A DNA stretch of 52,514 bases from a virus (taxonomy: Duplodnaviria > Caudoviricetes), in IMG/VR virus record IMGVR_UViG_3300028592_000015, positions 1 to 52,514 of that record; one strand, given 5' to 3'. Under the pieces are notes generated by a model that saw only the letters and a program-made list of their open reading frames with translations, did not search any database and was not told the origin of the DNA. The position numbers and the translations under genes were made by a program. Every line of letters begins with the position of its first letter. Within the stretch, counting starts at the first letter, position 1. This document shows, piece by piece, positions 2,360 through 36,695 of the stretch.

Positions 2360-3484
2360 TTAGCCGAGCAGAGTGGCGATGAACTCGCTGTTGACGGCCT
2401 TGAAGCCCCAAGCCAGGTGCAGTTCCCAGGTCCGCTGGCCGTACTGGCTGATGTCGAGCATCAGGTAGGTCATGCCGAACTGGTCGGAGATAAGCATCTG
2501 CTGGATGGTGGGGTTCTCAGGCATCAGCGGCGGGCGCATGACGCCGACAACGGCATTGCGCTCGAAGCACAGGTTCGGCGTGTAGTCGTTGCCGATGGTG
2601 ATGGCGTCGTTGTCGGCCTCAACGGCAAGCAGGCCGGGCCGGCCGATGGTGAACGAGCCGCCCGAAAGCGCGCTGTTCGCCACATACTTGTGCGACGTGC
2701 CGGCCACGGTCACGACGTCACCGCCGAGCAGCGTGCCGGAACCAGTGTCAACGTTGATCGTGGTGTCACCAATCGCGCCAGCAGCCGAAAGCTGGTAGCT
2801 CGTGCCGGTGCCCTTGGTGTGCACGCCGATTTGGCCGGAAGTGCGCATCTGGAAGCCGTACTGGCGACGCAGAACGCCGTCGCGGCGTTCCTGGTCGGAA
2901 CCAGCAATGGACGCATCGAGCACGACGCCGAGCTTGAGCAGGTTGGCTTCCGAGGTGGAGTCGCCAACAAACTGCAGGTCGGACATCGGTGCGCCGTTGT
3001 CGCGCAGAATCTTGCGGGCATCCGCAAGCGGCGTCAGAGCAGTGGCAAAGGGATTGGTGCCAGCCGTACCCGCCGCACGAGACGCGCCGGTCTTGATGGC
3101 AGTGATACAGTCCGCTTCGGCTTCGTTACGCAGCGTGCGCATGCCCTGCTTCAGGAGCTGGCTGATCCATTCCGCCGAGGTCGCGCCATTGTCGAGCGAA
3201 CGGATCTGCTCGCCGGTCAGATGCCAGTCAACCTTGCGGCTCTTGGTGATCTGGACCTGGATGGCCTGGGCCGTGGCATCGGTGCCGGTCGAAGTGGTAG
3301 CGGCCGGGGTGAAGTCGGACGCCGAACGGGTCGGAGCGACCGTGACAGTCACGTTGTCGCCCTTGGCAACGCCCTTGTCGTCAAAGTTGGCATTGATGGC
3401 GTCGATGGCGCCAAACGGTTCAGCCGCGACTTCCTTGGCCGCGGAGAACAGGGTCGGCGCGAGCGCCGTCAGAGTGTTGGCCAA
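2360..3484 (-). CDS. Major capsid protein (P22 coat-like)
   Basis: 374 aa, MANTLT start (TTG with AGGAGG RBS), follows scaffold, C-terminal 'ELHLAWGFKAV'. Confidence 0.9.
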   Translation of the reverse strand: MANTLTALAPTLFSAAKEVAAEPFGAIDAINANFDDKGVAKGDNVTVTVAPTRSASDFTPAATTSTGTDATAQAIQVQITKSRKVDWHLTGEQIRSLDNGATSAEWISQLLKQGMRTLRNEAEADCITAIKTGASRAAGTAGTNPFATALTPLADARKILRDNGAPMSDLQFVGDSTSEANLLKLGVVLDASIAGSDQERRDGVLRRQYGFQMRTSGQIGVHTKGTGTSYQLSAAGAIGDTTINVDTGSGTLLGGDVVTVAGTSHKYVANSALSGGSFTIGRPGLLAVEADNDAITIGNDYTPNLCFERNAVVGVMRPPLMPENPTIQQMLISDQFGMTYLMLDISQYGQRTWELHLAWGFKAVNSEFIATLLG

Positions 3485-3486
3485 AG

Positions 3487-3554
3487 TGGCCTCCTATGAT
3501 GGTGTGGAGTTTGGGAAGGAGGCCATTCGGCCCGGTGCCGCCGCCCCTTCGGGC
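3487..3554 (-). promoter_or_regulatory. Capsid leader with GAAK-loop hairpins and SD/anti-SD helix
   Basis: mRNA GCCC-GAAG-GGGC (3543-3554), GGCC-GAAU-GGCC (3521-3532); UGGCCUCCU (3517-3525) complementary to AGGAGGCCA (3487-3495). Confidence 0.6.
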
Positions 3555-3571
3555 TGACACAGCGAGCAGTC

Positions 3572-4339
3572 TTAGGCGTCAGCGAGCTTGCCGCCGCCAT
3601 TCATGAATGCAGCCCGGTCTTTGGCCGGCATTGCATTGAATTCGTCCTGGGTCTTAACCTTGGCGCTACCGCCTCCGCCCCCGCCGCCCGGCTGGGCGCC
3701 AGAGCCGCCGCCGACACCCTTCAGGATGTGGTCTTTGTGCGGGTAGGAGTCGACAAACGTCTCAACCACTTCGTCAAAGCTCGCCAGTTCGCCTGGACGG
3801 GCCTTGGAGTAAATTTTCTGGCCGTTCTGGTCGTAGCCCACCACGGCACCATCTTCGACCTTCATGCGGTCGGCAAACATGGTGCGCAGCAGGTCGACGC
3901 CGGCCGGGGTCAGCTTTTCGGTCGCAAACTTGGACTGGCTGAAGCCATTGCCGATCAGCGACTTATTCAGCGCGCCGCCGAGGTCGGAATTGGTCTTTTC
4001 GAGCGACTGTACCTTTTCCGCATAAGGCTTGATGGCGGCCGCAATGGCTGCATCCATATCGCCGGCCTCGACCAGCTTCCTGGCGTCGATCTGGGACAGC
4101 TTTTCGATGGCAGTACGGGCTTCGGTAGCGTCGAGCCCTTCAAAGGCTTTGGCGGCTTCCTCTGCCTTCTGCGCGCGGGCTTTATAGCTCTTGGATTCAT
4201 CGGTCAGGCGGGAAATGGTCGAGGCTGTGCCGGGGGCATCAAAAGCCACCGTCTTGCCGTCGTCGGTTTCGTAGACTGGCTTGTCGCCATCCACCTCAGC
4301 GTAAGTTTTGCCTTCGATCGTCACCGTCTTGAGCTTCAT
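3572..4339 (-). CDS. Capsid scaffolding protein (DUF6651-like)
   Basis: MKLK...DGDKPVY start, coiled coil, 'IYSKARPGELASFDE', Gly-rich C-terminus; between portal and capsid. Confidence 0.85.
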   Translation of the reverse strand: MKLKTVTIEGKTYAEVDGDKPVYETDDGKTVAFDAPGTASTISRLTDESKSYKARAQKAEEAAKAFEGLDATEARTAIEKLSQIDARKLVEAGDMDAAIAAAIKPYAEKVQSLEKTNSDLGGALNKSLIGNGFSQSKFATEKLTPAGVDLLRTMFADRMKVEDGAVVGYDQNGQKIYSKARPGELASFDEVVETFVDSYPHKDHILKGVGGGSGAQPGGGGGGGSAKVKTQDEFNAMPAKDRAAFMNGGGKLADA

Positions 4340-4352
4340 CTGTCGTCTTTCT

Positions 4353-4403
4353 GGGCCTTCGCCCTGTGGTGAGGCATTCGCCTCTGTCGCCCATGGCATT
4401 CGC
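4353..4403 (-). promoter_or_regulatory. Scaffold leader with three C-GAAK-G hairpins
   Basis: mRNA GC-GAAU-GC (4396-4403), GAGGC-GAAU-GCCUC (4371-4384), GGGC-GAAG-GCCC (4353-4364). Confidence 0.55.
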
Positions 4404-4414
4404 TTCAGGGCATG

Positions 4415-4439
4415 AAAAAGCCCGGCACAATGGCCGGGC
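4415..4439 (-). terminator. Intrinsic terminator after portal gene
   Basis: GCCCGGC-cattgt-GCCGGGC followed by TTTTT on the minus strand. Confidence 0.75.
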
Positions 4440-4465
4440 CTGAAATCATCATCAGTGTCTGTCGC

Positions 4466-6025
4466 CTACGCGACCGGCGGGGGCGGCGCCCCAAGGGCGG
4501 CCATTTCATCTTGGGTCACATCACCCGCCGGTATTTCGGCAAGTATCTTCTCAAGGTCTGCCGCCGCGTCGTATTCGGGGCCGAGAAGGTCGCGGCGCTT
4601 GGCCTCTGCTATCAACGCATCGCGGCTGATCTCTTCCATCTCTCGCAGCTTCAGCAGGAAGTCAGGCGCCTTGTCCGACTCCATGTCGATGGCGAAGTCG
4701 GTGTGAATGGCGATGGTTGGCTCTTCCGTCCGACCCATCCAGACCGCGGTATACTTCCACGCCAGCTCCAGAGCGTCCTTGAGTCCCAGAGCCCATGCCT
4801 GAACGGCAGAAATGCCCTTGGAGGCAGCAAAGGCCGTGGTGACCACCGTCAGGTTGCCCATCTGCGCTGTCAGGGGCTGGCGACCAAGCTCGCGCATCTG
4901 CTTTTCGCTGCGACCGATCTCGTCGGCCAGGAATGTCAGCGACGAGCCGTTGATCTCGATGAACGACCATTTGCCGGGCGTACCGTTCTGATCGGGCGGG
5001 CCATAGAGCACAGTCTTAGGACCGACCGGCACCTTCACCGGCTCTTCCACGGACTGCATGACGCCATCGATCGACACATTGCGCGTCGTCATCGGTGGAT
5101 TGACGCCCTCGGCCGTCAGCATCGGCGCCGCGGTCAGGTTCTTGGTGTATTCGAGGTTCGTCTCGTTCTGGTAGTGCTTCTTCTGCAGATGCACGACATC
5201 CCGCATCGGCGGCAGGATTTCCCACGATGTTCCGGTTCGCTTGCCAGTCAGGACGGGCACGAGAGGAATGAAGGGGATCGGCAGAACGCCGCTCTCTTCA
5301 GGAATAAGAACCCACTCCTCTTCCTGCTGGCCTTCCTTCTTGCGCTCTTCCCAGACCTCATAGGTCGGTGCTGCCCATGTCACGGAACCATCGGCGCCGG
5401 CAACGCGCTCGCGATTGAACACGCGAACCCGATCGATTTCCTTCTCACCGAACTGCCCGTCGCGCTCGTAGCGCTCTTCCTCGAACCGGACGTGCACGAA
5501 CTGCTCACGCCCGTCGATCATGGCGGTATAGGCCGCGATCATGCAGGAGGCCGGGATGCGCAACCAGTAGGGCCTTGCCCCGGCTGCACGCTCTTCCGCC
5601 AGTGTCGCCCCTGCCCGCACCCGCGTCTTATCGACCAGGATAAAGTCGAGGCCATTCGGGATAGACCAGAACAGGACGTCGGCGGCAAAGACGTGCATGT
5701 GATTGCCGCGCCCGTCGATGTCCTCTGCCAGCTTAACCATCTCCTCCGGCACCTTTTTGGCGTCGGCAAAGTTCAGTTCCTTGGCGAAGGGCTTGGCGGC
5801 CAGATCCTCGCAGATGTCGCGCAGAATATTGGTGAACTTGGCGTTGTTCAGCCGATCCTTGTAGTCGTCGTCGCCCTCGTTGGCGAACTTGGGCAGGTAC
5901 TTCCTGCCTTTGGAGATGACGGTATCGGCGCCATGGAGGAAGTCGTCGACCATCTCCCAATAGTCGTGCATGGCCTCGAAATCGTGGGCGCGATCATCGG
6001 GGCTTGGCTGCTTTTCGGTCATCAT
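4466..6025 (-). CDS. Portal protein (DUF4055-like)
   Basis: 519 aa directly after terL; 'KYLPKF..E...Y..RL..A' N-terminal motif. Confidence 0.85.
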   Translation of the reverse strand: MMTEKQPSPDDRAHDFEAMHDYWEMVDDFLHGADTVISKGRKYLPKFANEGDDDYKDRLNNAKFTNILRDICEDLAAKPFAKELNFADAKKVPEEMVKLAEDIDGRGNHMHVFAADVLFWSIPNGLDFILVDKTRVRAGATLAEERAAGARPYWLRIPASCMIAAYTAMIDGREQFVHVRFEEERYERDGQFGEKEIDRVRVFNRERVAGADGSVTWAAPTYEVWEERKKEGQQEEEWVLIPEESGVLPIPFIPLVPVLTGKRTGTSWEILPPMRDVVHLQKKHYQNETNLEYTKNLTAAPMLTAEGVNPPMTTRNVSIDGVMQSVEEPVKVPVGPKTVLYGPPDQNGTPGKWSFIEINGSSLTFLADEIGRSEKQMRELGRQPLTAQMGNLTVVTTAFAASKGISAVQAWALGLKDALELAWKYTAVWMGRTEEPTIAIHTDFAIDMESDKAPDFLLKLREMEEISRDALIAEAKRRDLLGPEYDAAADLEKILAEIPAGDVTQDEMAALGAPPPPVA

Positions 6026-7560
6026 CCAGTTCCATATGTGCCGAAGATGGCAGTCGAACCCTTGGCGCCGGTCACCAGTCGCCCAAAGGCGCCTGACGTG
6101 GCGTCAACCTGATCCTTGAACGAACCGCCCGGAAACAGGCATAGTTCGTCAAGGTAAGATTCATTCCATTCGCCCTCGACCAGGTAGACGTTGCCCGCCT
6201 CGCACTGGACCGAGAATGGTTCGGCGCGTGTTACCTTATCGCCGGTCTCAGGCTCCGCTCGGGCAATGAATCCCGCGAGCATGGCGACCATATCCTTGGC
6301 CTGCACCTTTCCGGCCTGGCCCGGGTCTTGCGGCAAACTGATCTGGACCGACTTGCCATCGAGCTCTGCAGTGGCCTTGATTAGCTTGCGGACCTCGTTA
6401 CCCTCTTCTTGGGCAATGACAGAGGATGCGACCCAGTATGAGCCATCAGGAGCCCTGCCGAGCTTCACGCCTGCCGTTCTGGCGGCTGTTGTGCTCTTGG
6501 TCGATGCCAAGTCCCAATGGCGCACCCAAACCGTTCCTGGAGGCGCTACGCGGCGAATCTTGCCTTCGAACCAGTGGCGCTTGAATAAGCCGCCTTCGCG
6601 AGGTGTTGGACGCTGCTGGTACTGGCCGGCATAACCGTATTCGCCCTTGACCTTCTTCAGCGCCTCGACCGCCTCTCGGCTGAAGCGCTCCGGCAAGAGC
6701 AATTCGCCCTGATGCGAACGGGGATCGCTGAAGCCGATGATGGTCTTTTTGTTCGTCGGCCCCTCGAACTCCATCGGGAGGCACAGATGCGCATATGGCA
6801 GGCCCAGCTTCAGGATCGTGCCGGCGACATCATCGCTGTGTAGGCGCTGCATGATGACCACGATGGCCGATCGGTCGAGATCGTTCAGGCGGTCAGATAT
6901 CGATTCCCGGAAGATGCGCACCGCGTTGCGGCGCTCCACCTCGCTCTCTGCCGTTTCCGTTGAGTGCGGATCGTCGATGATCACCCGATCACCACGGCCA
7001 CCGGTCATGGATGCGAAGGGCCTGCCCTCACGTCCACCCGATGCCGTGTTTTCGAACTTGCCCTTGGCGTTCTGGTCCGCAGACATGCGCACCGTAGGCC
7101 AGAGCGATTGATACCACTCGCTCTCGACCAGGCGGCGCATCTTCGTGTTGTCGCGCATCACGTTGTCCTGCGAATAGGACGATGTGAGATAGCGCATATG
7201 CGGCAGATCGGCCGGGCCCCATTCATAGGCTGGCCAGAATACCGAGTGCAGCAGGGACTTCATCAGACCCGGCGGGCAGTTGGTCAGCAGGCGGGTGATT
7301 TCCCCGCGCGTAACCGCCTCCAGATGGTCAGCCATGGCCTGTAGCGGCCATCCCCATACCAGCTTGGCCTTGGGCTCCAGAATGGGCCAGGCATGGCGCA
7401 CGAACCCGGCAAGGGTCTGGCACTCCGCCCTGATGCGTTCGGCGTTCTTTGCTACGTCGGCGCGTTCCCGCTCAGTGCGTCGTCTCGCCTTCTCCGCCCT
7501 GATCTCCGCCAATGTCGGCAAGCGGACCGAGGATCGATTCAAGGTGATCGAGCTGTTCAT
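6022..7560 (-). CDS. terL: Terminase large subunit
   Basis: PPGLMKS Walker A-like, IIDDPH Walker B, VIMQRLH, WDLA and DQVDA nuclease motifs. Confidence 0.95.
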   Translation of the reverse strand: MNSSITLNRSSVRLPTLAEIRAEKARRRTERERADVAKNAERIRAECQTLAGFVRHAWPILEPKAKLVWGWPLQAMADHLEAVTRGEITRLLTNCPPGLMKSLLHSVFWPAYEWGPADLPHMRYLTSSYSQDNVMRDNTKMRRLVESEWYQSLWPTVRMSADQNAKGKFENTASGGREGRPFASMTGGRGDRVIIDDPHSTETAESEVERRNAVRIFRESISDRLNDLDRSAIVVIMQRLHSDDVAGTILKLGLPYAHLCLPMEFEGPTNKKTIIGFSDPRSHQGELLLPERFSREAVEALKKVKGEYGYAGQYQQRPTPREGGLFKRHWFEGKIRRVAPPGTVWVRHWDLASTKSTTAARTAGVKLGRAPDGSYWVASSVIAQEEGNEVRKLIKATAELDGKSVQISLPQDPGQAGKVQAKDMVAMLAGFIARAEPETGDKVTRAEPFSVQCEAGNVYLVEGEWNESYLDELCLFPGGSFKDQVDATSGAFGRLVTGAKGSTAIFGTYGTG

Positions 7561-8424: not shown

Positions 8425-8581
8425 GGGTCATGCTCTCCGATGAAAGGGCACGAGCGGGCGAAGCATGTTCTAATGCTCTTGGCTTTGAATGGGTGTCATT
8501 CGCCGCGCTCGATGATGTCGCCCAGCACCCCTATATGAATACCCCGCGAGGCTCGCAGGCCTTCGGCAATGCCAGGCAATT

Positions 8582-8659
8582 TGGTTGCGGAGGAGGGATT
8601 TGAACCCTCGACCTCTGGCTTATGAGACCAGCGAGCTACCGGACTGCTCCACCCACGCA
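8582..8659 (-). tRNA. tRNA-Met(CAT), initiator-like scaffold, atypical
   Basis: TGCGTGGGTGGAGCAGTCCGGTAGCTCGCTGGTCTCATAAGCCAGAGGTCGAGGGTTCAAATCCCTCCTCCGCAACCA: D arm, CTCATAA loop, GGTTCAAATC, encoded CCA. Confidence 0.9.
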
Positions 8660-13581: not shown

Positions 13582-14066
13582 CGATGCGTCCCCAGATACG
13601 CCTTGTCATGGTGGGCGGCGCAATATGGCGAACCCTCGATCGAGTGACGGCCGCAGAACCCGAAGCCTGGCTTCAGAGGGTCGCCAATAGGCCATTTGCA
13701 GGTGTGCTCGTTCAAATCGAGAATGCTGCCGATCAATGCGGTGACGTCATTGCCCAGATCAAGCAGGCCATCTGGATCGTCATTGAACTGTGGCCCCTTG
13801 GCGCGTGCCGCCGATACCTGGCGCACATCGATGCGAGCCTCGACCTTGGGCGGCTTAGGCTTCTTCGGCGGCGCTGGTGGCTTTGGCGTGCGTCCCTTGA
13901 GCTGTATCTTGCGGCGCGAGCAGTAACCGATGATGGTGTTCCGCGTGCAGTTCCGGAAGCTCCGGGCAATGAGCGAAGCAGGCTTGCCTTCGGTAGCCAA
14001 TGCCCTGACCTTCGCTGCGCGCTCGGCCTCTGGCGTTTCCGTCCAATCTGGAAGCAGGTCATGCAT
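13578..14066 (-). CDS. gcrA: GcrA-family cell-cycle regulator homologue
   Basis: N-terminal 'ASLIA...TRNTIIG' HTH and C-terminal 'LDLNEHTCKWPIGDP...FCG...PYCxxH...AY'. Confidence 0.88.
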   Translation of the reverse strand: MHDLLPDWTETPEAERAAKVRALATEGKPASLIARSFRNCTRNTIIGYCSRRKIQLKGRTPKPPAPPKKPKPPKVEARIDVRQVSAARAKGPQFNDDPDGLLDLGNDVTALIGSILDLNEHTCKWPIGDPLKPGFGFCGRHSIEGSPYCAAHHDKAYLGTHR

Positions 14067-15048
14067 GGGCGGGCTCCGCGAAAAGGTTATCGGTCTTGGC
14101 TCTTTCAAGTTCCGATAGGTTGCGAATAGCCTGTTTGAAGTAGGACGCCTTGAGCTCGAACCCGATGCCCTTGCGGCCCATTTCGACGGCGCTATAGACC
14201 TCGCTGCCGATGCCAAGGAACGGTGTAAGGACGGTCTCGCCTGGCATGCTCCACAGGTCGATGCATCGCTCGATAACGTCGAGTTGCAGGGGCGAGATAT
14301 GAACCTCGTCCTTTTCGTCGCGGCCGCCACGATACTGCAGGGTGCGGGTCTGGTTGATGTCCATCCATACCGGCGACGCGTACCGCTGCCAGACAAGGAT
14401 CGACTTCCACTTGTCATATGGCCATGGCTCGCGCCCATCGGCCCGGAACTGTGCGGCTTCGCGATCGTAGGCCTCACGGCTCACGTCAAGGCCGGTGCCA
14501 ATGTAGCGATCAAAGGGTCCATCCACCGGGTCGGCGTTGTCACCTGGCTTGCGGAACGTGACGATATAGTCGGCAAGCCCCTGCCCGCTGATCGTGCTGT
14601 CCTTCATGATCTGCGCATGAAGCAGGCGGATCGACTTGGTGCGCTGCTGCGCAACCACAGGGTCTTTCCAAATGCAAACCTCGGAGTGGAATATCCAGCC
14701 GGCGTCGGTGTAAGCTTGCACTACCTCGCCACGGAAATCCCGCATGCCGGTAAAACCATCGCGCGTCTTGCTGGTCGGCAACTGCATGCAATGAACGCTA
14801 TGCAGGCGCCCCGGCTTGGTAACCCGCAAAAGCTCCTGGATCAGGAAAGCGTAGTGGGTCCAGAACCCCTGCTTGTCGTTGTTGGAAATGTCCCGGTCGC
14901 TGTTGCTGAACCGGTAAAGACCCTCGAATGGTGGGGAGTGGACGCCGAAGTCGATGCTATCGCCGGGGATGGCGCGGATAAGCTCGCAACTGTCACCCTG
15001 GTAGATGGCATAGCGGTCGGTCACGACCTGATCGATCGCGTTGATCAT
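14059..15048 (-). CDS. DNA N4-cytosine/N6-adenine methyltransferase (beta class)
   Basis: SPPF motif IV near the N-terminus; VLTPFLGIGS motif I near the C-terminus. Confidence 0.9.
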   Translation of the reverse strand: MINAIDQVVTDRYAIYQGDSCELIRAIPGDSIDFGVHSPPFEGLYRFSNSDRDISNNDKQGFWTHYAFLIQELLRVTKPGRLHSVHCMQLPTSKTRDGFTGMRDFRGEVVQAYTDAGWIFHSEVCIWKDPVVAQQRTKSIRLLHAQIMKDSTISGQGLADYIVTFRKPGDNADPVDGPFDRYIGTGLDVSREAYDREAAQFRADGREPWPYDKWKSILVWQRYASPVWMDINQTRTLQYRGGRDEKDEVHISPLQLDVIERCIDLWSMPGETVLTPFLGIGSEVYSAVEMGRKGIGFELKASYFKQAIRNLSELERAKTDNLFAEPAHA

Positions 15049-16427: not shown

Positions 16428-17491
16428 GACGATACCGCCTCCTTGATCATCGACGTGATTTGCGGCCACTGCTTCAGCGCCCCGCGATACCGATCCATCG
16501 TGTCGAACCAGGCCCATTTGCGATCCAGCGTCATCAGAGGGCCGGGACCGGTTGGGCATGGAGAAAGGCTCTGATGGACATACCGAACAGGCTTCCCGAT
16601 CACGGCCTTCTCCCGCAGATAGAACCGACCCGTTGGCGTGGTGCGCGCTGGCCTGACTATCGGCGGCGGAAGTGGCAGCCGGTCGCTTGGCTTACTCAGT
16701 GGCGGGAGTTCTGGCTTTGCTGGCACCGAAGCACGGCGCCCGGTAATTCCCTTGCTGGTGGCCTCCGAAAGCTCCGCAGAGATCATCCTGCGAAGCGTGA
16801 TCCCGGCGCTCTTTGCCGCCCAATTGACGCTGGTGATCTTGGCGTCGATGGCGTCAGCAACTTCGCGGGCCGTGGCGTTTGGATGATCCGCGACATAGGC
16901 CGCGATCTTGTCCGCCATGGTGATGCGCTTTGCTGGCGCTGGCGTGTCCGCTGGCGGGGTTTCCGGCTTTGGCGCAGCCTGTGGCTCGACTGGCGGCTCT
17001 TCTGCCTCTGGCGGCTTCGCTACGGACGCGGCGAGGGCTTGCCGTGTCTGCGCCTTCAATGAGCGCTCGTAATCCCACCAGGACACCAGCTTGAGGCCCT
17101 TGCGGCTCGCTGTGGCGCGTACCGCGTCCTCGCTTATGCCGAGATGCTGGGCAATGAGCTTGGATGGCCAGTCTGGATGCTCGGCATGGGTAGCGAGAAC
17201 CTGAGCACGCTTGTTGCCGCGCTTGGATGGCTTGACGGACGGCGAAGTCAGGGAGGAGGTCGAAACTCCGCCATCCGTCGTGACGCCCGCCGCTTGGGTA
17301 GCGGGCGTATCGGCAGCCGGTGCATGAGGCTTGGAGGGACCCTCCGGCTGCGATGGGGTGATGCATGGGCGCAGCGCCGCGATGATGGCGGTCTGCGATA
17401 CGCGGTGAGTGCGTGCCTGCTCGGCGATGAACACGCCGAAGTCGAGGGCGATGGTGGTGGCGTCGTGGGCCGGGAGGATGGGGCTGATCAT
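16424..17491 (-). CDS. Pro/Ala-rich protein with two HTH-like segments
   Basis: HPDWPSKLIAQHLGIS and HPNATAREVADAI; coupled ORF. Confidence 0.6.
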   Translation of the reverse strand: MISPILPAHDATTIALDFGVFIAEQARTHRVSQTAIIAALRPCITPSQPEGPSKPHAPAADTPATQAAGVTTDGGVSTSSLTSPSVKPSKRGNKRAQVLATHAEHPDWPSKLIAQHLGISEDAVRATASRKGLKLVSWWDYERSLKAQTRQALAASVAKPPEAEEPPVEPQAAPKPETPPADTPAPAKRITMADKIAAYVADHPNATAREVADAIDAKITSVNWAAKSAGITLRRMISAELSEATSKGITGRRASVPAKPELPPLSKPSDRLPLPPPIVRPARTTPTGRFYLREKAVIGKPVRYVHQSLSPCPTGPGPLMTLDRKWAWFDTMDRYRGALKQWPQITSMIKEAVSS

Positions 17492-19317
17492 GCCACTGCC
17501 CTCTCAACCCGGCGCTCGGCGACAGGCTTCGCCGCGTCGGCCATGATGGCGCGCACCTCTGCCTTCATCATCGAGACCGACACGGCGTTGCCAATCTGCT
17601 TGATCTTGTCGGTCTTGGTGCCAGCGAACTCGTACTGTTGGTCCTCGTCGTTGAAGCCCATGGCCGATGCCAGCTCGTGGGGCTCGAACATGCGGAACAG
17701 GATGTCGAAGGCGGGACCGGCTTGGGCTAAGTCCACATGTCCAGTCGCGGCAATGGTCGGCACCGGCTGTTCTATATCGTGGGTGCGTGGTGGGTGGCCG
17801 GGCCGTTCGCCGTGCTGGGCGGTGATGAAGGCCAGTTCGCCGCGGTTGGCGCCTGTGATGGTTGGTAGTGGTTCGAGAGCATCGGCAGCCCGGTCCAGGC
17901 CGCCTTCGTGCGTCACCGGCAGCACGACCGCATATTCCCCGCCTTTCGCTGTGGTGATCACCGGCAAAGGCTCGGCGATATCCCGCGCGCCGTTCCCGCC
18001 CTGTGTGTGGGTGACCGGCACCACCATGCCGAACCGACCTTTGGAGGTGATGGTGGGCAGCGGCTGCTCGGAGGACGTGAGCGTCTCGCCAGAGCCGGTC
18101 CCGTAGTAGGGAGAGACGAGCGCATGGGCTCCGTCGGTCGGCGCAGTCGGAATGGGCTCGGAGACTTGGCGCGGAACACCGCCGGCACCCTGAGAGAGAA
18201 CGAACGGCTCAACCAACGCGAAGTGCTGGCCACCGGCCGTTATGGCGGGGATCGGCTCTTGCAAGCTTCGCGGGCGAGCCCCTGTGATTTCTTCCCCCTG
18301 TTTCCTCAGGGTCAGCACGACAGGCTCCACCAAGATCGGTCTGGCACAGCCGGGATGATCTTCGGCAGCCGCTCCGCCAGTCGTGATGGTTGGGAGCGGG
18401 TCGGCGACGCTCCGTGCGGCGCCGCTGTTGTGCTGAGACAGCACCAACGGCTCTCCCCTTACTGCCCGATAGCTGGTGGTGATGGTCGGCACGTCAATGC
18501 CCAGGCCGGTCATGTAGGCGGCCAGCGTATCGATGTAGCCCTGCGGCCAGCCGTATTTGACGATGCCGGCATAGATCCGGATGAGCGTCTTGGCGGCCAG
18601 CGGCTTCTTGCGGGTGTAGATCGACCGGCCCTTGATCTTCCAATCGATAATCTCCGCCGCGGCGCGCCAGGGGCGAACGTCGGCGAACTGCAGGACATTG
18701 CCCTCGCTGCGCTTGGCATGCGTCAGCGGCGCCCAGCCGAGGAGCTTCTTGTCGGAGCGGGCCTTGAGGATGAAGCGCGACCTGGTCGTGGCGTCCCCGT
18801 AGTTGGCCGCGTTGAGCTTTCGCCACTCAGGCTCGAAGCCCAGGCGCCGGATCGTGTCGATCCACGCCATGAAGTATTCGCCCTTGCGGGACTTCACCGG
18901 CTTTCCGGTACGGACGTCCACCGGACCCCAGCCGACGAATTCCCAGACGTTCTCGATGATCAGGCGTTTCACCCGCAGCTCGGTCAGCCAGGTGATGATA
19001 TGCCAAGGGTCGGACCGCTGCTGGTCCGATGTCGGCTTGCCGCCGCGGGCCACGGAATGGTGAGTGCAGGTTGGCGATGCCATCAGGAGGTCGAGATAGC
19101 CTTCTGGCACCAACAGATGCGGGCGCACCGTGGCGATGTCCTGGACGAAGTGCCGGGCCTCGGGATGGTTCATCGTGTGGGTTTCGATGGCCGTGGGCCA
19201 GTGGTTGACGCACACCAGGTCCATTTCCAGACCCAGGTCGCGCAGCGCGCGCATCGCTCCGGTGGACGAACCGCCGGCTCCGCAGAGCAAATCGGCAACA
19301 AGCATCTTCTTGGCCAT
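17488..19317 (-). CDS. DNA cytosine-5 methyltransferase with internal repeats
   Basis: DLLCGAGG, SPTC, ENV, RxR, QIGNAV; start at MAKKML. Confidence 0.93.
   Translation of the reverse strand: MAKKMLVADLLCGAGGSSTGAMRALRDLGLEMDLVCVNHWPTAIETHTMNHPEARHFVQDIATVRPHLLVPEGYLDLLMASPTCTHHSVARGGKPTSDQQRSDPWHIITWLTELRVKRLIIENVWEFVGWGPVDVRTGKPVKSRKGEYFMAWIDTIRRLGFEPEWRKLNAANYGDATTRSRFILKARSDKKLLGWAPLTHAKRSEGNVLQFADVRPWRAAAEIIDWKIKGRSIYTRKKPLAAKTLIRIYAGIVKYGWPQGYIDTLAAYMTGLGIDVPTITTSYRAVRGEPLVLSQHNSGAARSVADPLPTITTGGAAAEDHPGCARPILVEPVVLTLRKQGEEITGARPRSLQEPIPAITAGGQHFALVEPFVLSQGAGGVPRQVSEPIPTAPTDGAHALVSPYYGTGSGETLTSSEQPLPTITSKGRFGMVVPVTHTQGGNGARDIAEPLPVITTAKGGEYAVVLPVTHEGGLDRAADALEPLPTITGANRGELAFITAQHGERPGHPPRTHDIEQPVPTIAATGHVDLAQAGPAFDILFRMFEPHELASAMGFNDEDQQYEFAGTKTDKIKQIGNAVSVSMMKAEVRAIMADAAKPVAERRVERAVA
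17725..18453 (-). repeat. About seven 30-39 aa tandem peptide repeats in the MTase variable region
   Basis: Recurring cores DPLPTITT, EPIPAITA, EPIPTAPT, QPLPTITS, EPLPVITT, EPLPTITG, QPVPTIAA. Confidence 0.8.
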
Positions 19318-19319
19318 GG

Positions 19320-19853
19320 CTATGCCCTTGCCTTCTTGGGTTGATGGAATGCGAGTTCGGGAAGCTGCTGGGAGGCCATATGCGTCCAGAGGCAAATCGC
19401 GTCGCACCGGTCGGCCTGAAGCTCTTCCATGGTCAGGAAGCTGCGGTTCAGCACTTCGGCCATGACCGCATCCTTGGCCTCGCCGCTGGGAAACGTGCCC
19501 CGCCCGGTGAAGGACTTGCGCGCAGTACTCGACGCGATGAGGTGCGCCCTTCCCGGCAGTCTTGCCTTCACCACGGCTCTCAGGACGGCCTGTAAGCCAA
19601 CCAGCATGGTTTGGGATGCGGGGTTGGTGTAACCGCCGCCGCTGGCCTTTATCGGGGCCTCGATGGCCACGATGGCGGGGTTGAGGACGCGCATCTGGTC
19701 GTTGAGCCAGGTCATGCCGCGCATGAAGACTTCGTCCTCTGGCGCGTCGTCCTTGCGCCACTCGACGAAGCCGCTGATGGGCGTGTCGCCTGGAATGCCG
19801 AAACACCAGCCCGTGCACTTGCCGCTGACATCGAGGGCGAGGATCGAGCGCAT
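19320..19853 (-). CDS. RuvC-like Holliday junction resolvase
   Basis: ILALD..TGW, VAIEAP, D..DA acidic motifs. Confidence 0.8.
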   Translation of the reverse strand: MRSILALDVSGKCTGWCFGIPGDTPISGFVEWRKDDAPEDEVFMRGMTWLNDQMRVLNPAIVAIEAPIKASGGGYTNPASQTMLVGLQAVLRAVVKARLPGRAHLIASSTARKSFTGRGTFPSGEAKDAVMAEVLNRSFLTMEELQADRCDAICLWTHMASQQLPELAFHQPKKARA

Positions 19854-19855
19854 GG

Positions 19856-20335
19856 TCAGTTGACCGTCCCGCCGGTGAGTTCGTCGAGAGCCTTGCCGCC
19901 CTCTTCCTGCTCTTCGTCGGTGACCTTCTGGATTGCTTCGATGCGCTCACGGTTGGCGCGCTCGGCAAACGTCTCTTCGACGCCTTCCGGCACCTCGCCC
20001 GGCGGCAGCCAATTGTACTGGCCCGAAACATCGGCCCAGAGCTCGATCTTGGTATCGGGCATCGACGCGGCGCGCTTCTGCTTCTGCTCGAAATACTTCC
20101 GGTCCTCGGCGCGTTCGGCGAGCTTGGCCTTGAACACTTCGAGGTCCATGCCGAGTTCCTGGCACAGCATCTTGATCTTGCGCTTGGCCTTCTCACGGAT
20201 TTCGGCGGCGGCTTGGCGGTGCTTGTCGCGTTCCGCTCCAGCCTCATCGACCGTGATTTCCTCGACTTCTTCGAGGGCCTGGATCCAGTCGGAGTCGTCC
20301 GCGCTGTTCTGCAATTGTGGGGCTGCCTTGCTCAT
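19856..20335 (-). CDS. Acidic coiled-coil protein, weakly GapR/DUF2312-like
   Basis: 'KMLCQELGMDLEVFKAKLAER' weakly resembles GapR-type helices. Confidence 0.45.
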   Translation of the reverse strand: MSKAAPQLQNSADDSDWIQALEEVEEITVDEAGAERDKHRQAAAEIREKAKRKIKMLCQELGMDLEVFKAKLAERAEDRKYFEQKQKRAASMPDTKIELWADVSGQYNWLPPGEVPEGVEETFAERANRERIEAIQKVTDEEQEEGGKALDELTGGTVN

Positions 20336-23052: not shown

Positions 23053-23829
23053 ATGTCGGAATTTGATCCCCATACCCTTGCCGGCCGCATCGAGCGGCGC
23101 CTTGAAGTCGTTGGGCTTTCACCCTCAGCCGCGTCCGAAAAGGCGATGGGCGATGGCAAGCGCGATGCGATCCGAAAAATCTATGACAAGGCCAAAAAGA
23201 ACGAGCCGTTTAGCCCGCGCATGGACACGATACGCGCGCTGGCGAAGGTACTGCGCACGACCGCATCATGGCTGACCGACGAGGTCGGTCCCGAGGAACT
23301 GCCGGATGGCAATGGTCATCTGGAGGGCCCGGGCGTGCCCCATGACGGCCCCAAGCCGACATATGCCGGCAACGTGCAGGCGGGCATGTTCCGGGCCGTT
23401 GATGAGTATTTCAACCAAGACCCCGAGGACGTGCCCGATTACGTGCTCATGGTCCCGAAATACAACCGGGTCCGCCAATACGTCTGGCGGTCTCTTGGGG
23501 ATTCAATGGACGAGGCCGGCATCCTCGACGGCATGTGGGTGGTGGGCGCGGATGCTGCCGACTACATCGACACCTATGGCGATATCGTCACAGGGGATCT
23601 CGTCGTGGTCGAGCGCGTTCGCTACCAGGGCTCCGAGCGAGAATTGACCGTCAAGGAAGTGCACTTCTTCCGGGACCGGTATGAGCTGCGCCCCGTCAGC
23701 AGCAATAAGGATCACACCCCCATTGTCGTCCAGCATGACCACTCGGTGAACGGTGACGACGAAGAAGTAAAAATCATCGGCGTCGTGCTCACTGCTTACG
23801 CCAATCTCCGGAGAACGCCTGGACGATGA
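23053..23829 (+). CDS. CI-like repressor (HTH + S24 peptidase)
   Basis: N-terminal HTH, VQAG cleavage-like site, GDSMD Ser, TVK Lys. Confidence 0.9.
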   Translation: MSEFDPHTLAGRIERRLEVVGLSPSAASEKAMGDGKRDAIRKIYDKAKKNEPFSPRMDTIRALAKVLRTTASWLTDEVGPEELPDGNGHLEGPGVPHDGPKPTYAGNVQAGMFRAVDEYFNQDPEDVPDYVLMVPKYNRVRQYVWRSLGDSMDEAGILDGMWVVGADAADYIDTYGDIVTGDLVVVERVRYQGSERELTVKEVHFFRDRYELRPVSSNKDHTPIVVQHDHSVNGDDEEVKIIGVVLTAYANLRRTPGR

Positions 23830-24876: not shown

Positions 24877-25956
24877 CTAGGTTTGAAGAAGATTCACGAA
24901 GTCCACAGGGTCATTGAAATAGTTCCTGTAGGCACTACGAAGCTGCTTCGGCTCGCCGGTCACATACACCGCATTGATACTCCGACCGCTAGCTTCCAAC
25001 TGGCTCGCTCGCGCGATTGCCTCCTCTGAGTTCCGAAACACTTCAACGTCCAGCGAATATCCGCCTGCATCGTTCGCCACGATGTTGAGAACGTTGTGCT
25101 TGCGCAACTTGTCGAACTCGTCGAACTCCCGCATTGCGCCGAGACGCTGCAGAATTCCAAGTTCGTCTTCCAATCGCGCGAACCGCGCCTCCAGATCGTC
25201 GGTCGTCACATCCGCATAAGCGCGGGTTATCCCCTCGTGCCGGCGCGCAATGATTTCGCTGGCCATTGCGAAGAAAACACCACGAGCATCATCCCCGTGG
25301 CCAAATTTGGTGCGCTGCCGATCCATGATGTCGGAGATTTCAAGAGCGGTCGCCCAAGCGTGCTGCGCACGAGTTCGGTATTGAACCTCGACCATAAGAC
25401 CGTGCCAAGGTTCGGAAGTTTTGTCCCCAGATCGATGTGGTCGAGGATGGTGCAGAAAGACGTCGTGAACGCCCCGATAGCCAGTAGCCTTGGGATGTTC
25501 GATGTAGTTGTACTTATCGAGATCTTCGTGCTTGAGCTTGTGGTTCACGTTGCTCAACGACCTGCTAGAGAGCAGCTCACTACGGAACGAGTTGAGATCG
25601 TTGATGTCCTCGAAGATAAGCCTGCAGCCTGCAAAGTCCTGCATGGTGGTCACGTCTCTAATGAGAGGAGTGCCATCAGGCTTCGTTCTCTGAAGCTTGT
25701 CTATAACCGTGTTGCGGCGTTTCAGCCGCTGGGCGAATTCTGCGCGGATAGGTGAATTGTCGATTCGGCGCCGAAACCAGACCTTGAAAGTGTTCAAGAC
25801 ATAGCTGTGAGCAGCCCTCCATTGATCGACCAGGTCGTAGTCTTCTTGGGTTGCTCGCCCCTCTGCTACAGCTCGGCCAGCATTCCGGACCTGTGTCTTT
25901 GAAGAGGGTGGTTCGCTGAAGGACAATGGAGTGTTCTCCGATATTTTCGGCAACAC
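24877..25956 (-). CDS. RelA/SpoT-domain small alarmone synthetase, CapRel-like fused toxin-antitoxin
   Basis: RLKR..TVIDKL, QDFAGCR, GYRGVH, EVQYRT..QHAWA; C-terminal AYRNYF (YxxY); probable GTG start with GAGG RBS. Confidence 0.85.
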   Translation of the reverse strand: MLPKISENTPLSFSEPPSSKTQVRNAGRAVAEGRATQEDYDLVDQWRAAHSYVLNTFKVWFRRRIDNSPIRAEFAQRLKRRNTVIDKLQRTKPDGTPLIRDVTTMQDFAGCRLIFEDINDLNSFRSELLSSRSLSNVNHKLKHEDLDKYNYIEHPKATGYRGVHDVFLHHPRPHRSGDKTSEPWHGLMVEVQYRTRAQHAWATALEISDIMDRQRTKFGHGDDARGVFFAMASEIIARRHEGITRAYADVTTDDLEARFARLEDELGILQRLGAMREFDEFDKLRKHNVLNIVANDAGGYSLDVEVFRNSEEAIARASQLEASGRSINAVYVTGEPKQLRSAYRNYFNDPVDFVNLLQT

Positions 25957-26030
25957 TTCTAACCTCGCTTGAGTGCACGCGCCAGCGGAGTCATTCCATC
26001 TCAATCTCGCGCGTATTGCCCTATTGATAC

Positions 26031-35679: not shown

Positions 35680-36015
35680 ATGACCAGGATCTATCAGTGG
35701 ACCACCCTTGACGACGAGATCGCCCTTGATGCGATCATTGTTGGCATCGGCGGCACCAGCATGGAGATGCTTATGGCTGGGCTCTCCTATGTGGAGCCCA
35801 CGGGAAGCATCTACTGGTCGGCATGGATGGGCCCGGAGGGGCAGATCGTCGATGCGGGCGGGGAAATGGGGCCATGGCTGGTGACGGACGCCCTGAAGCG
35901 CGCCGAAGAGCTAAGGACTCAATTCGGCTTCCCGCGCGTTGTGGTGACCATGGAAGAGCGCGGCGTATGGCGTGACGAGTGGGGCACGCTGGCGGATCGG
36001 GAGGGCTATGACTGA
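35680..36015 (+). CDS. Hypothetical protein
   Basis: TGATG-coupled to the SRAP gene. Confidence 0.6.
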   Translation: MTRIYQWTTLDDEIALDAIIVGIGGTSMEMLMAGLSYVEPTGSIYWSAWMGPEGQIVDAGGEMGPWLVTDALKRAEELRTQFGFPRVVVTMEERGVWRDEWGTLADREGYD

Positions 36016-36695
36016 TGTGCGGACGCTTCACGAATGAACTGACCTGGCCGGAGCTATACGCCCTCTACAACATCCACAATGAGGGTCCGAAGACCAACGC
36101 GCAGCCGCGCTACAACATCGCCCCGACCCAGGACGTTGATTTCGTCCACCTCGACAAAGCCGGAAACATGGAGCTCGATCGCGGCCGATGGTGGTTGGTC
36201 CCCTTCTTCGCAAAGGAACTGCCGAAGGCGGCAATGTTCAATGCCCGCATTGAAACGGTCGATACTTCCGGTGCTTTCCGGGACGGCTTCAAGTCTCGGC
36301 GCTGCCTCATCCCGGCCGATGGCTATTTCGAATGGACAAAGAATGAGGATGACGGCGGCAAAGACCCTTGGCTTCTTCAGTTACCAAGCGGTGCGCCATT
36401 CTCGTTCGCCGGCCTATGGGCGCGGAACGATAATCTCGGCGTGACGAGCTGCACCATCATCACGGCACCGGCCGTGCCCGAAATTGCGCATATTCACACT
36501 CGAATGCCCGTCATTCTGGCCCCGGAAGCATATGGCACCTGGCTGAACACGAACATCCAAGGAGACGACGCAAAGGCCCTGCTTCTCGATGCCCAAATCG
36601 ACAGCCAGTTGGTGTTTCACCGGGTCGGCCGAGAGGTCAATTCCAGCCGATACGAAGGCACCGACACCAAGAAGCCGCTGATCAACTCGCTTTAG
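36015..36695 (+). CDS. SRAP (YedK/HMCES) abasic-site processing protein
   Basis: MCGRF, YNIAPTQ, NARxET, RRCLIPADGYFEW, HxRMPVIL. Confidence 0.95.
   Translation: MCGRFTNELTWPELYALYNIHNEGPKTNAQPRYNIAPTQDVDFVHLDKAGNMELDRGRWWLVPFFAKELPKAAMFNARIETVDTSGAFRDGFKSRRCLIPADGYFEWTKNEDDGGKDPWLLQLPSGAPFSFAGLWARNDNLGVTSCTIITAPAVPEIAHIHTRMPVILAPEAYGTWLNTNIQGDDAKALLLDAQIDSQLVFHRVGREVNSSRYEGTDTKKPLINSL

Follow-up and report, generated by a model that had tools for sequence, protein, structure and literature searches.

The DNA analyzed here, referred to as the window, is a whole stretch of 52,514 nucleotides (nt) and represents the complete 52.5-kb IMG/VR virus record IMGVR_UViG_3300028592_000015, which has a G+C content of 61%. 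The head module of this virus lies on the minus strand in the order small terminase, large terminase (6022-7560), portal (4466-6025), a DUF6651 scaffold-like gene, a P22-type coat gene and then further head and tail genes, with the small terminase assigned from a weak match that was under the family cut-off. The subject of this study is the leader of the major coat (capsid) gene. That gene (2360..3484) encodes a protein of 374 amino acids (aa) with matches to the phrog_283 major head protein (E=5.8e-66) and to Pfam P22_CoatProtein (E=1.2e-7), and it is separated by an intergenic spacer of 87 nt (3571-3485) from the scaffold-like gene (3572..4339; Pfam DUF6651, E=2.2e-29; phrog_206 head scaffolding protein, E=1.2e-25). 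Two tandem hairpins in the coat leader represent a conserved cis-RNA motif specific to phages, which many phages and prophages carry ahead of their scaffold and coat genes, and in the window the second of them competes with a long helix that buries the Shine-Dalgarno (SD) sequence and the start codon of the coat gene. The start itself, described as a weak UUG in a first-pass annotation of this DNA, is at 3484-3482, where it lines up in the alignment with the AUG or GUG starts of relatives. UUG is a rare choice: among 133 distinct coat leaders, to which the 182 examined were reduced once 15 with no flank or no clear start had been dropped and identical sequences merged, there were 118 with ATG, 13 with GTG and 2 with TTG.

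All of the leader elements that the first-pass annotation had described are present, on the minus (mRNA) strand, where it had placed them. Read in the direction of the mRNA, the leader begins with hairpin 1 (GCCC-GAAG-GGGC, 3554-3543, -8.2 kcal/mol), which is supported by the sequence, by folding and by the motif alignment. It is followed by the linker GGCGGCACC (3542-3534), corresponding to the conserved CGGYG linker of the motif family, in which G19, G20 and G22 of the alignment (A1, see below) are conserved at 90% or more. Hairpin 2, GG(G)CC-GAAU-GGCC(U) (3533/3532-3521/3520), has an energy of -8.1 kcal/mol in its longer form and aligns with the second hairpin of the motif. The perfect pairing over 9 base pairs (bp) that had been reported between UGGCCUCCU (3525-3517) and the SD region AGGAGGCCA (3495-3487) was also confirmed, although the annotation had understated its length. 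In the minimum free energy (MFE) fold, GGCCGAAUGGCCUCCU (3532-3517) pairs with AGGAGGCCA-c-UUUGGCC (3495-3479), resulting in a helix of 16 bp with one bulged C that buries both the SD AGGAGG (3495-3490) and the UUG start. The 5' arm of this long helix (3532-3517), a 16-mer that is identical in the relative L087, holds the anti-SD UGGCCUCCU; the 21-nt loop (3516-3496) has no G (A7 C10 U4); and the 3' arm (3495-3479), which is paired in both the MFE and the centroid folds, takes in the SD, the spacer, the UUG start and the GGCC of codon 2. The claim that hairpin 2 and the anti-SD helix are mutually exclusive stands, but the two share 12 nt and not 5 nt because the helix extends past the 9-bp run.

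The predicted energetics of the leader are strongly one-sided. The long helix has an energy of -27.9 kcal/mol, the state in which it coexists with hairpin 1 reaches -36.1 kcal/mol and the state with two hairpins only -16.3 kcal/mol, while the unpaired probability is 0.03 or less throughout the SD and start. Because the 16-bp helix buries these signals, the naked coat-leader RNA is predicted from folding to be translationally OFF, and not bistable. Along the best refolding path the barrier to leaving the hairpin state is 4.9 kcal/mol, and that to returning to it 24.7 kcal/mol. In the growing transcript hairpin 2 is predicted to fold first and to be supplanted by the helix after position 3487 has been synthesized. 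A short open transcript from a sigma-70 promoter within the leader was also considered and was rejected, as a consensus scan gave no promoter-like (sigma-70) sites in 3300-4600.

To judge the contribution of chance, the 72 nt upstream were shuffled 1000 times while the ribosome site was kept fixed. A Watson-Crick run of at least 9 bp arose in 4 of these shuffles, and in none of them was the cost of opening positions -14..+4 as high as in the window (19.5 kcal/mol versus 10.8 +/- 1.4 kcal/mol in shuffles). The 106-nt leader as a whole had a folding z of -3.0, with 1 of 200 shuffles folding equally well. It is unlikely that the SD-burying complementarity is a product of chance. Opening energy was used for these comparisons since the mean unpaired probability over -16..+3 takes in loop bases and is a poor measure. 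Across the 133 distinct coat leaders the median opening cost was 6.5 kcal/mol, and the two highest values were those of L087 (21.4 kcal/mol) and of the window (18.3 kcal/mol). A different coat-leader design was seen in L105 and in L147/L148, where a long-range helix, ACUCC(GG):(CC)GGAGU, buries the SD from a position ~110 nt upstream of the coat start and encloses a structured insert of ~60 nt, at an opening cost of 15-16 kcal/mol. That design is common to phages with coats 63% and 38% identical to the window coat.

The tandem hairpins themselves belong to a much larger family, consisting of two hairpins with G-R-A-N tetraloops joined by the CGGYG linker. In relatives of the window phage, tandem hairpins with GGAU loops stand right before the coat gene and right before the scaffold gene. 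Across 78 distinct viral loci there were 119 sense-strand and 24 antisense-strand hairpins with GGAU loops, compared with a mean of 27 when all tetraloops and both strands are taken together. The mirror loop ATCC was counted only 68 times on the antisense strand at those loci, and from this low count it follows that many stems rely on G-U pairs and that the element acts as a sense-strand RNA. Alignment A1 was built from 117 distinct sense-strand tandem pairs, 42 of which passed a linker and loop filter; after removal of one duplicate register and one coding-sequence instance and the addition of L087, it held 41 instances. RNAalifold predicted both hairpins from the alignment, with compensatory changes in all 7 pairs. 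In a 9-pair structure 92.1% of the cells were paired versus 66.8% after shuffling (none of 500 shuffles was as high) and every slid register stayed below 49%, with the caveat that three closing pairs had been required when the instances were chosen, such that the inner pairs are paired by construction.

Searches with the model R1 are free of that pairing bias. In 80 viral loci all 42 matches were on the sense strand, 16 of them before a coat gene and 26 before a scaffold gene, and 100 further loci yielded another 37, again all on the sense strand (13 before a coat gene, 24 before a scaffold gene). In total, 79 of 79 family matches lie on the sense strand and just upstream of a coat or scaffold gene. 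The window's coat-leader copy (3557-3517) was matched by R1 at 33.8 bits, although this copy belonged to the training alignment. It is without the GGAU loop of the family; its GAAG and GAAU loops are a variant that is also found in L087 and L005. In all 24 motif-bearing coat leaders the spacer between the hairpins and the SD is C-rich and poor in G (median 9.5% G versus 29% in coding sequence). With a conserved loop, freely varying stems with compensatory changes, fixed spacing, sense-only occurrence and restriction to head-gene leaders, the hairpins bear the marks of a factor-binding element, and the motif is probably read by a factor.

In its distribution the motif is specific to phages. Carriers include cultured temperate phages of Acinetobacter baumannii and the Synechococcus phage Yong-M4-211, which grows on PCC 7002. 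In five host genomes, seven of eight R1 matches were inside a prophage and three genomes had pairs of scaffold and coat leaders, while across one bacterial order matches occurred in 2 of 121 genomes. Rfam 15 gave no match at the gathering score in the window leader (two matches within 3400-3650, with E of 2.6 and 4.6, were at chance level), and for ten relatives' loci it gave nothing on the motif at E<=1. A weak rsmX match was seen in L053 (E=0.63). We found no description of the motif in the literature; it might be listed in a catalogue of candidate structured RNAs of viruses and phages, which includes candidates consistently placed before phage genes, five of them before a major capsid protein family, and names PHA00201 (PMC10690425). 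No literature was found on DUF6651, Yong-M4-211 or Ssp-JY42.

A second copy of the motif precedes the scaffold-like gene of the window. It occupies 4408-4368 and is composed of a weak hairpin, GC-GAAU-GC (4403-4396), and a stronger one, GAGGC-GAAU-GCCUC (4384-4371); R1 matched it at 20.7 bits (E=0.0026), and this copy was outside the training set. A third hairpin, GGGC-GAAG-GCCC (4364-4353), which is supported by sequence, folding and relatives, is followed by AGAAAGAC and then by the scaffold start. The alignment of relatives makes ATG 4339-4337 (MKLKTV...) the likely true start, and not the first in-frame ATG at 4399, which sits within the structured leader and may cause automatic calls to add 20 false residues. 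The last of the scaffold-leader hairpins abuts the SD, and in the Acinetobacter baumannii phages it abuts the AUG itself. The latter group (L201-L275: prophages of this species, phages Ab1656-2, Acba_1 and others) has kept GC-rich scaffold-leader hairpins in an AT-rich context; its third hairpin, GGUU-GGAU-GACC, stops 1 nt short of the AUG, and there is no other SD, the loop being at the SD position. Upstream of the window's scaffold leader, after the portal gene, sequence reading and folding indicate a terminator-like GC hairpin of 8 bp (GCCCGGC / GCCGGGC) with a run of five U (4440-4415), which leads into a UUUUU-n-AUGCC junction, a layout that is the same in relatives. A consensus terminator scan found 0 sites in 3300-4600, in disagreement with this folded hairpin and U-run.

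The whole design of the coat leader, hairpins plus SD-burying helix, is repeated in one mosaic relative, L087, which starts its coat gene with GUG and whose 16-mer and SD arm match those of the window exactly. Apart from the start region, L087 and the window agree at every one of the 29 positions that are clearly paired, while differences occur at 6 of the 21 loop positions and at 4 of the 10 linker positions; the hairpins of the scaffold leader are likewise the same in both. The two phages are mosaic exactly around the leader: their portal genes share 72% nt identity, and their scaffold and coat proteins 50% and 38% aa identity, respectively. Since the arms are identical while the flanking proteins have diverged, the non-coding leader has been better kept than the adjoining genes. 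Efforts to enlarge this lineage added little. A search with the 16-mer pattern returned 6 stretches, one of which (L087) was relevant, and a search with the 17-mer scaffold-leader pattern returned 10, again with only L087 relevant. Of 80 loci obtained in a scan with the scaffold protein, most were Acinetobacter prophages that hardly differed from one another, and none was a new phage of the GAAN type; metagenome and genome scans added relatives, none of them with the anti-SD design. Contigs from four soil runs matched 3300-4500 only in short and mostly spurious pieces, with no real coverage of the leader from which natural variants could be read.

Our best guess is that the leader constitutes a factor-gated ON switch on coat translation, and we put the probability of this at roughly 0.35. 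A trans-acting factor would recognize the tandem hairpins by their loops, most likely while the RNA is leaving the polymerase, and its binding would clamp hairpin 2. Only the UCCU tail could then pair with the SD and the long helix would be blocked, leaving the strong AGGAGG site exposed, such that coat translation would be licensed by the factor in the way that Com acts on the mom message of phage Mu. Because the last hairpin of the scaffold leader abuts the SD, the same factor would be more likely to repress there. The first-pass annotation had put forward the core of this idea, that a factor bound to the hairpin frees the SD. The idea is partly supported: by the mutual exclusion of hairpin 2 and the helix, by the marks of a factor-binding element on the hairpins and by the recurrence of the design in L087. 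A balance between the two folds, conservation of the overlap in the closest coat relatives and a candidate binder were not supported.

Several results weigh against such a switch. The helix state is favored over the hairpin state by ~20 kcal/mol and the barrier out of the latter is a mere 4.9 kcal/mol; such modeled energies would demand of any binder either very tight binding or action on the RNA while it is being transcribed. The covariation check on the long helix produced no compensatory change, its arms being identical in the only two examples, the window and L087. The first-pass annotation had held that a lack of the overlap between hairpin and anti-SD in relatives would refute the switch. 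That overlap is absent from the closest coat relatives and from 22 of the 24 motif-bearing coat leaders, and its absence therefore counts against a conserved switch. Relatives with coats 78-85% identical are without the design: the spacers of L161, L001, L003, L088 and L089 are short, and in L002 there are GGAU hairpins but no anti-SD. The SD is buried in just 2 of the 24, the window and L087. In favor of a switch-like architecture beyond these two, a downstream partner of hairpin 2 stronger than 95% of 500 shuffles was present in 7 of the 24 (binomial P = 1.3e-4), but in the five significant leaders other than these two the helix stops 11-24 nt before the start codon, and the median z across all 24 was -0.55. 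In a number of other phages (L013, L015, L040, L093-L096, L020, L022, L032, L053 and others) a terminator-like GC hairpin with a U-run replaces the tandem hairpins before the coat SD, and a coat message there would require read-through. In a further set (L016, L017, L026, L062, L063, L074, L146 and others) the coat frame is open upstream without a stop, which suggests an N-terminal extension or a fusion.

The search for a factor was likewise unsupportive. Six-frame searches of the phage genome for domains of CsrA, Com, RegA, Hfq and ProQ were all negative, and Pfam found no RNA-binding family among the 35 proteins scanned of ~74 called open reading frames. The blanks for Com (zinc-ribbon PF10122, no match in the 52.5-kb genome) and for RegA are weak ones, given that the control genomes gave no matches either. 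CsrA as a general reader was rejected: PF02599 was present in none of five hosts of motif-bearing prophages and not in the one phage genome, the control being positive in E. coli, B. subtilis and T. maritima, and the window loops are without GGA. The scaffold and coat leaders of a given phage agree in loop type. In the window the loops are GAAU and GAAG in the scaffold leader and GAAG and GAAU in the coat leader; in L087 they are GGAU, GAAU and GAAG, and GAAC and GAAU; and in L005 they are GAAU, and GAAG and GAAU. Most other phages have GGAU in both leaders, with GGAA or GGAC mixed in by L119, L158 and L199. Because the motif is nearly confined to prophages in its hosts and loop type is matched in both leaders of each phage, these sequence patterns suggest that the phage itself encodes the reader of the hairpins, which may be a protein of head assembly. 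A scaffold protein that co-evolves with loop type was not supported in this role by the tree: GGAU loops are found in the window's sister in the scaffold tree, L174 (72% aa identity, support 100/95), and the GAAN loop type needs at least two changes on that tree, which weakens the scaffold protein as a co-evolving binder and counts against the switch.

Four other explanations were weighed against the factor-gated switch. One is ribosome standby, in which the helix would be constitutive, the 30S subunit would load on the G-free loop or spacer and capture rare openings, AGGAGG would offset the structure and the weak UUG, and the hairpins would not gate the start at all; we regard this as rather unlikely. 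The model has a pedigree for structured start sites, as it stems from the MS2 coat cistron (PMC5934652). Here it would account for the lack of G in the loop (3516-3496), for the G-poor, C-rich spacers of all 24 motif-bearing coat leaders and for the dominance of the helix in the ensemble. A helix of -27.9 kcal/mol is, however, far stronger than the structures reported as rescued by standby binding, the coat is the protein needed in the largest amount and yet the opening costs of the window and L087 are the highest of the 133, and the model gives no reason why the 5' arm should overlap a conserved hairpin so precisely. We think it unlikely, and somewhat more so, that the leader serves RNA processing or stability, with the hairpins acting as 5' stabilizers of messages cut below an operon-internal terminator, thereby raising scaffold and coat over portal and terminase, and with the long helix as an RNase III-type site at which a cut frees or destroys the start. 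The position of the scaffold-leader motif directly after the terminator-like hairpin, U-run and AUGCC junction, both here and in many relatives including the Acinetobacter baumannii phages, is what would be expected of such a role, as is the placing of the motif before exactly the two head proteins required in bulk. A simple stabilizer, though, needs no conserved loop, fixed linker or fixed spacing, and RNase III substrates usually span roughly two helical turns, which 16 bp and a bulge do not reach.

That the arrangement is a coincidence or a recombination linker seems distinctly unlikely to us. It would mean that the GGCC arm of hairpin 2 and the adjoining CCU happen to complement the AGGAGG-CC site and the GGCC across the start and the Ala codon 2 (UUG-GCC), in a leader kept as a point of module exchange. 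The rarity of the buried SD (2 of 24), the closest coat relatives without the design, the lack of any compensatory change and the exact mosaic boundary around the leader in the window and L087 all agree with this. Set against them are the shuffles, which gave the 9-bp run in 4 of 1000 cases and the opening cost in none; the identity of the 29 paired positions in the window and L087 while loop and linker vary; and the fact that the unrelated leader design of L105 and L147 buries the coat SD too, via its ACUCC:GGAGU helix. Least probable, and in our estimation very unlikely, is a nut/put-like or Rho-modulating element, whose hairpins would recruit or modify RNA polymerase to read through the terminators of the head operon, with the C-rich spacer as a Rho loading site and the SD pairing as a secondary matter. 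Hairpins of the boxB type can be likened to G-R-A-N loops on short GC stems, terminator-like hairpins do occur inside the operon and directly before the coat SD in L013, L015, L040, L093-L096 and others, and the spacer is C-rich and G-poor in every one of the 24 leaders. Yet the scaffold-leader hairpins come after the terminator and not before it; no conserved boxA-like sequence was noticed upstream on reading the leaders, for which no formal search was made; no N-like or Q-like protein was identified, N protein not having been searched for; and the exact covering of SD and start by the helix would have no explanation.

Returning to the factor-gated switch, we speculate about a wider scheme, which we consider quite improbable as it stands. 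A single head-assembly protein of the phage (scaffold, portal or an unrecognized small protein) might read both leaders, repressing scaffold and licensing coat, and such feedback on RNA would set the scaffold-to-coat ratio. The system would be widespread in phages with DUF6651 scaffolds and have lineage-specific loop 'dialects' (GGAU versus GAAN). The differences in output between neighboring head genes of one operon, such as portal, scaffold and coat, are poorly understood outside a few models, and here a conserved RNA element without an Rfam entry stands before the two head proteins made in bulk and, in the window, shares part of its sequence with a helix by which the coat start is shut. If it is true that a factor reads the hairpins, they would represent a new translational operator system for the morphogenesis of double-stranded DNA (dsDNA) phages, with a natural ON-switch variant. 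Even in the absence of such a factor, the leader remains an extreme example from nature of a highly expressed gene whose start is buried.

Elsewhere in the window, upstream of the terminase genes, the minus strand carries at 8516-8658 a tRNA gene (53.7 bits) with a DUF3800-VIII RNA (44.1 bits; gathering score 40.2) immediately behind it. The phage encodes two DNA methylases (14059-15048 and 17488-20247), a RelA/SpoT-domain protein (24877-26004, minus strand; E=6.2e-12), an S24-peptidase repressor-like protein (23053-23829, plus strand) and an SRAP protein (36015-36695, plus strand).

The leader can be compared with several known systems. The P22 system shares a P22-type coat and a scaffold gene, and its scaffold output is reportedly set post-transcriptionally by unassembled protein, in work attributed to Casjens and Adams in 1985 and to Wyckoff and Casjens in 1985. 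P22, by contrast, has no room for the motif, as its genes 8 and 5 overlap and 13 nt are all that separates gene 1 from gene 8, and the window scaffold is of another family, DUF6651. As a candidate carrier P22 was rejected, R1 finding nothing in its first 12 kb at E<=0.1, and the present finding therefore has no bearing on the old question of P22 scaffold autoregulation. The CsrA consensus is GGA in hairpin loops, often in tandem, and there is a likeness to CsrA/RsmA sites in that most relatives have GGAU(G) loops on short stems in tandem ~20-24 nt apart, the last of them at the SD position in some scaffold leaders. The difference is that the window has GAAG and GAAU loops without GGA and that the motif was not found elsewhere in the five hosts. 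With the lambda N/boxB system the hairpins have in common short GC stems and purine-rich, G-N-R-A-like loops, GCCC-GAAG-GGGC in particular resembling boxB; unlike in lambda nut, the window loops have four bases and not five, they lie behind a terminator within a late head operon, and no boxA was noticed on reading the leaders.

In the RNA phages MS2, Q-beta and PP7, the message of a structural gene has a protein-read operator in the form of a small hairpin, of which the loop is conserved and the stem free to vary. The window motif is likewise a small hairpin element on a viral structural-gene message, and the structured coat start of MS2 is still translated (PMC5934652); the differences are that those are RNA phages with a single hairpin that contains the start codon and mediates repression, whereas here tandem upstream hairpins of a dsDNA phage are proposed to mediate activation. 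In the Com/mom system of phage Mu, as described in PMC6483171, a stem (the translation inhibition structure, TIS) occludes the start signals, and the activator is proposed to target a short adjoining or overlapping hairpin and thereby to open the stem. The window differs from it in having two tandem G-R-A-N hairpins, a major coat gene as the target, a helix far stronger than the hairpin and a factor that is predicted only. The likeness lies in the arrangement itself, in that the SD and start of the window are enclosed in a 16-bp stem, the 5' side of which is mutually exclusive with hairpin 2.

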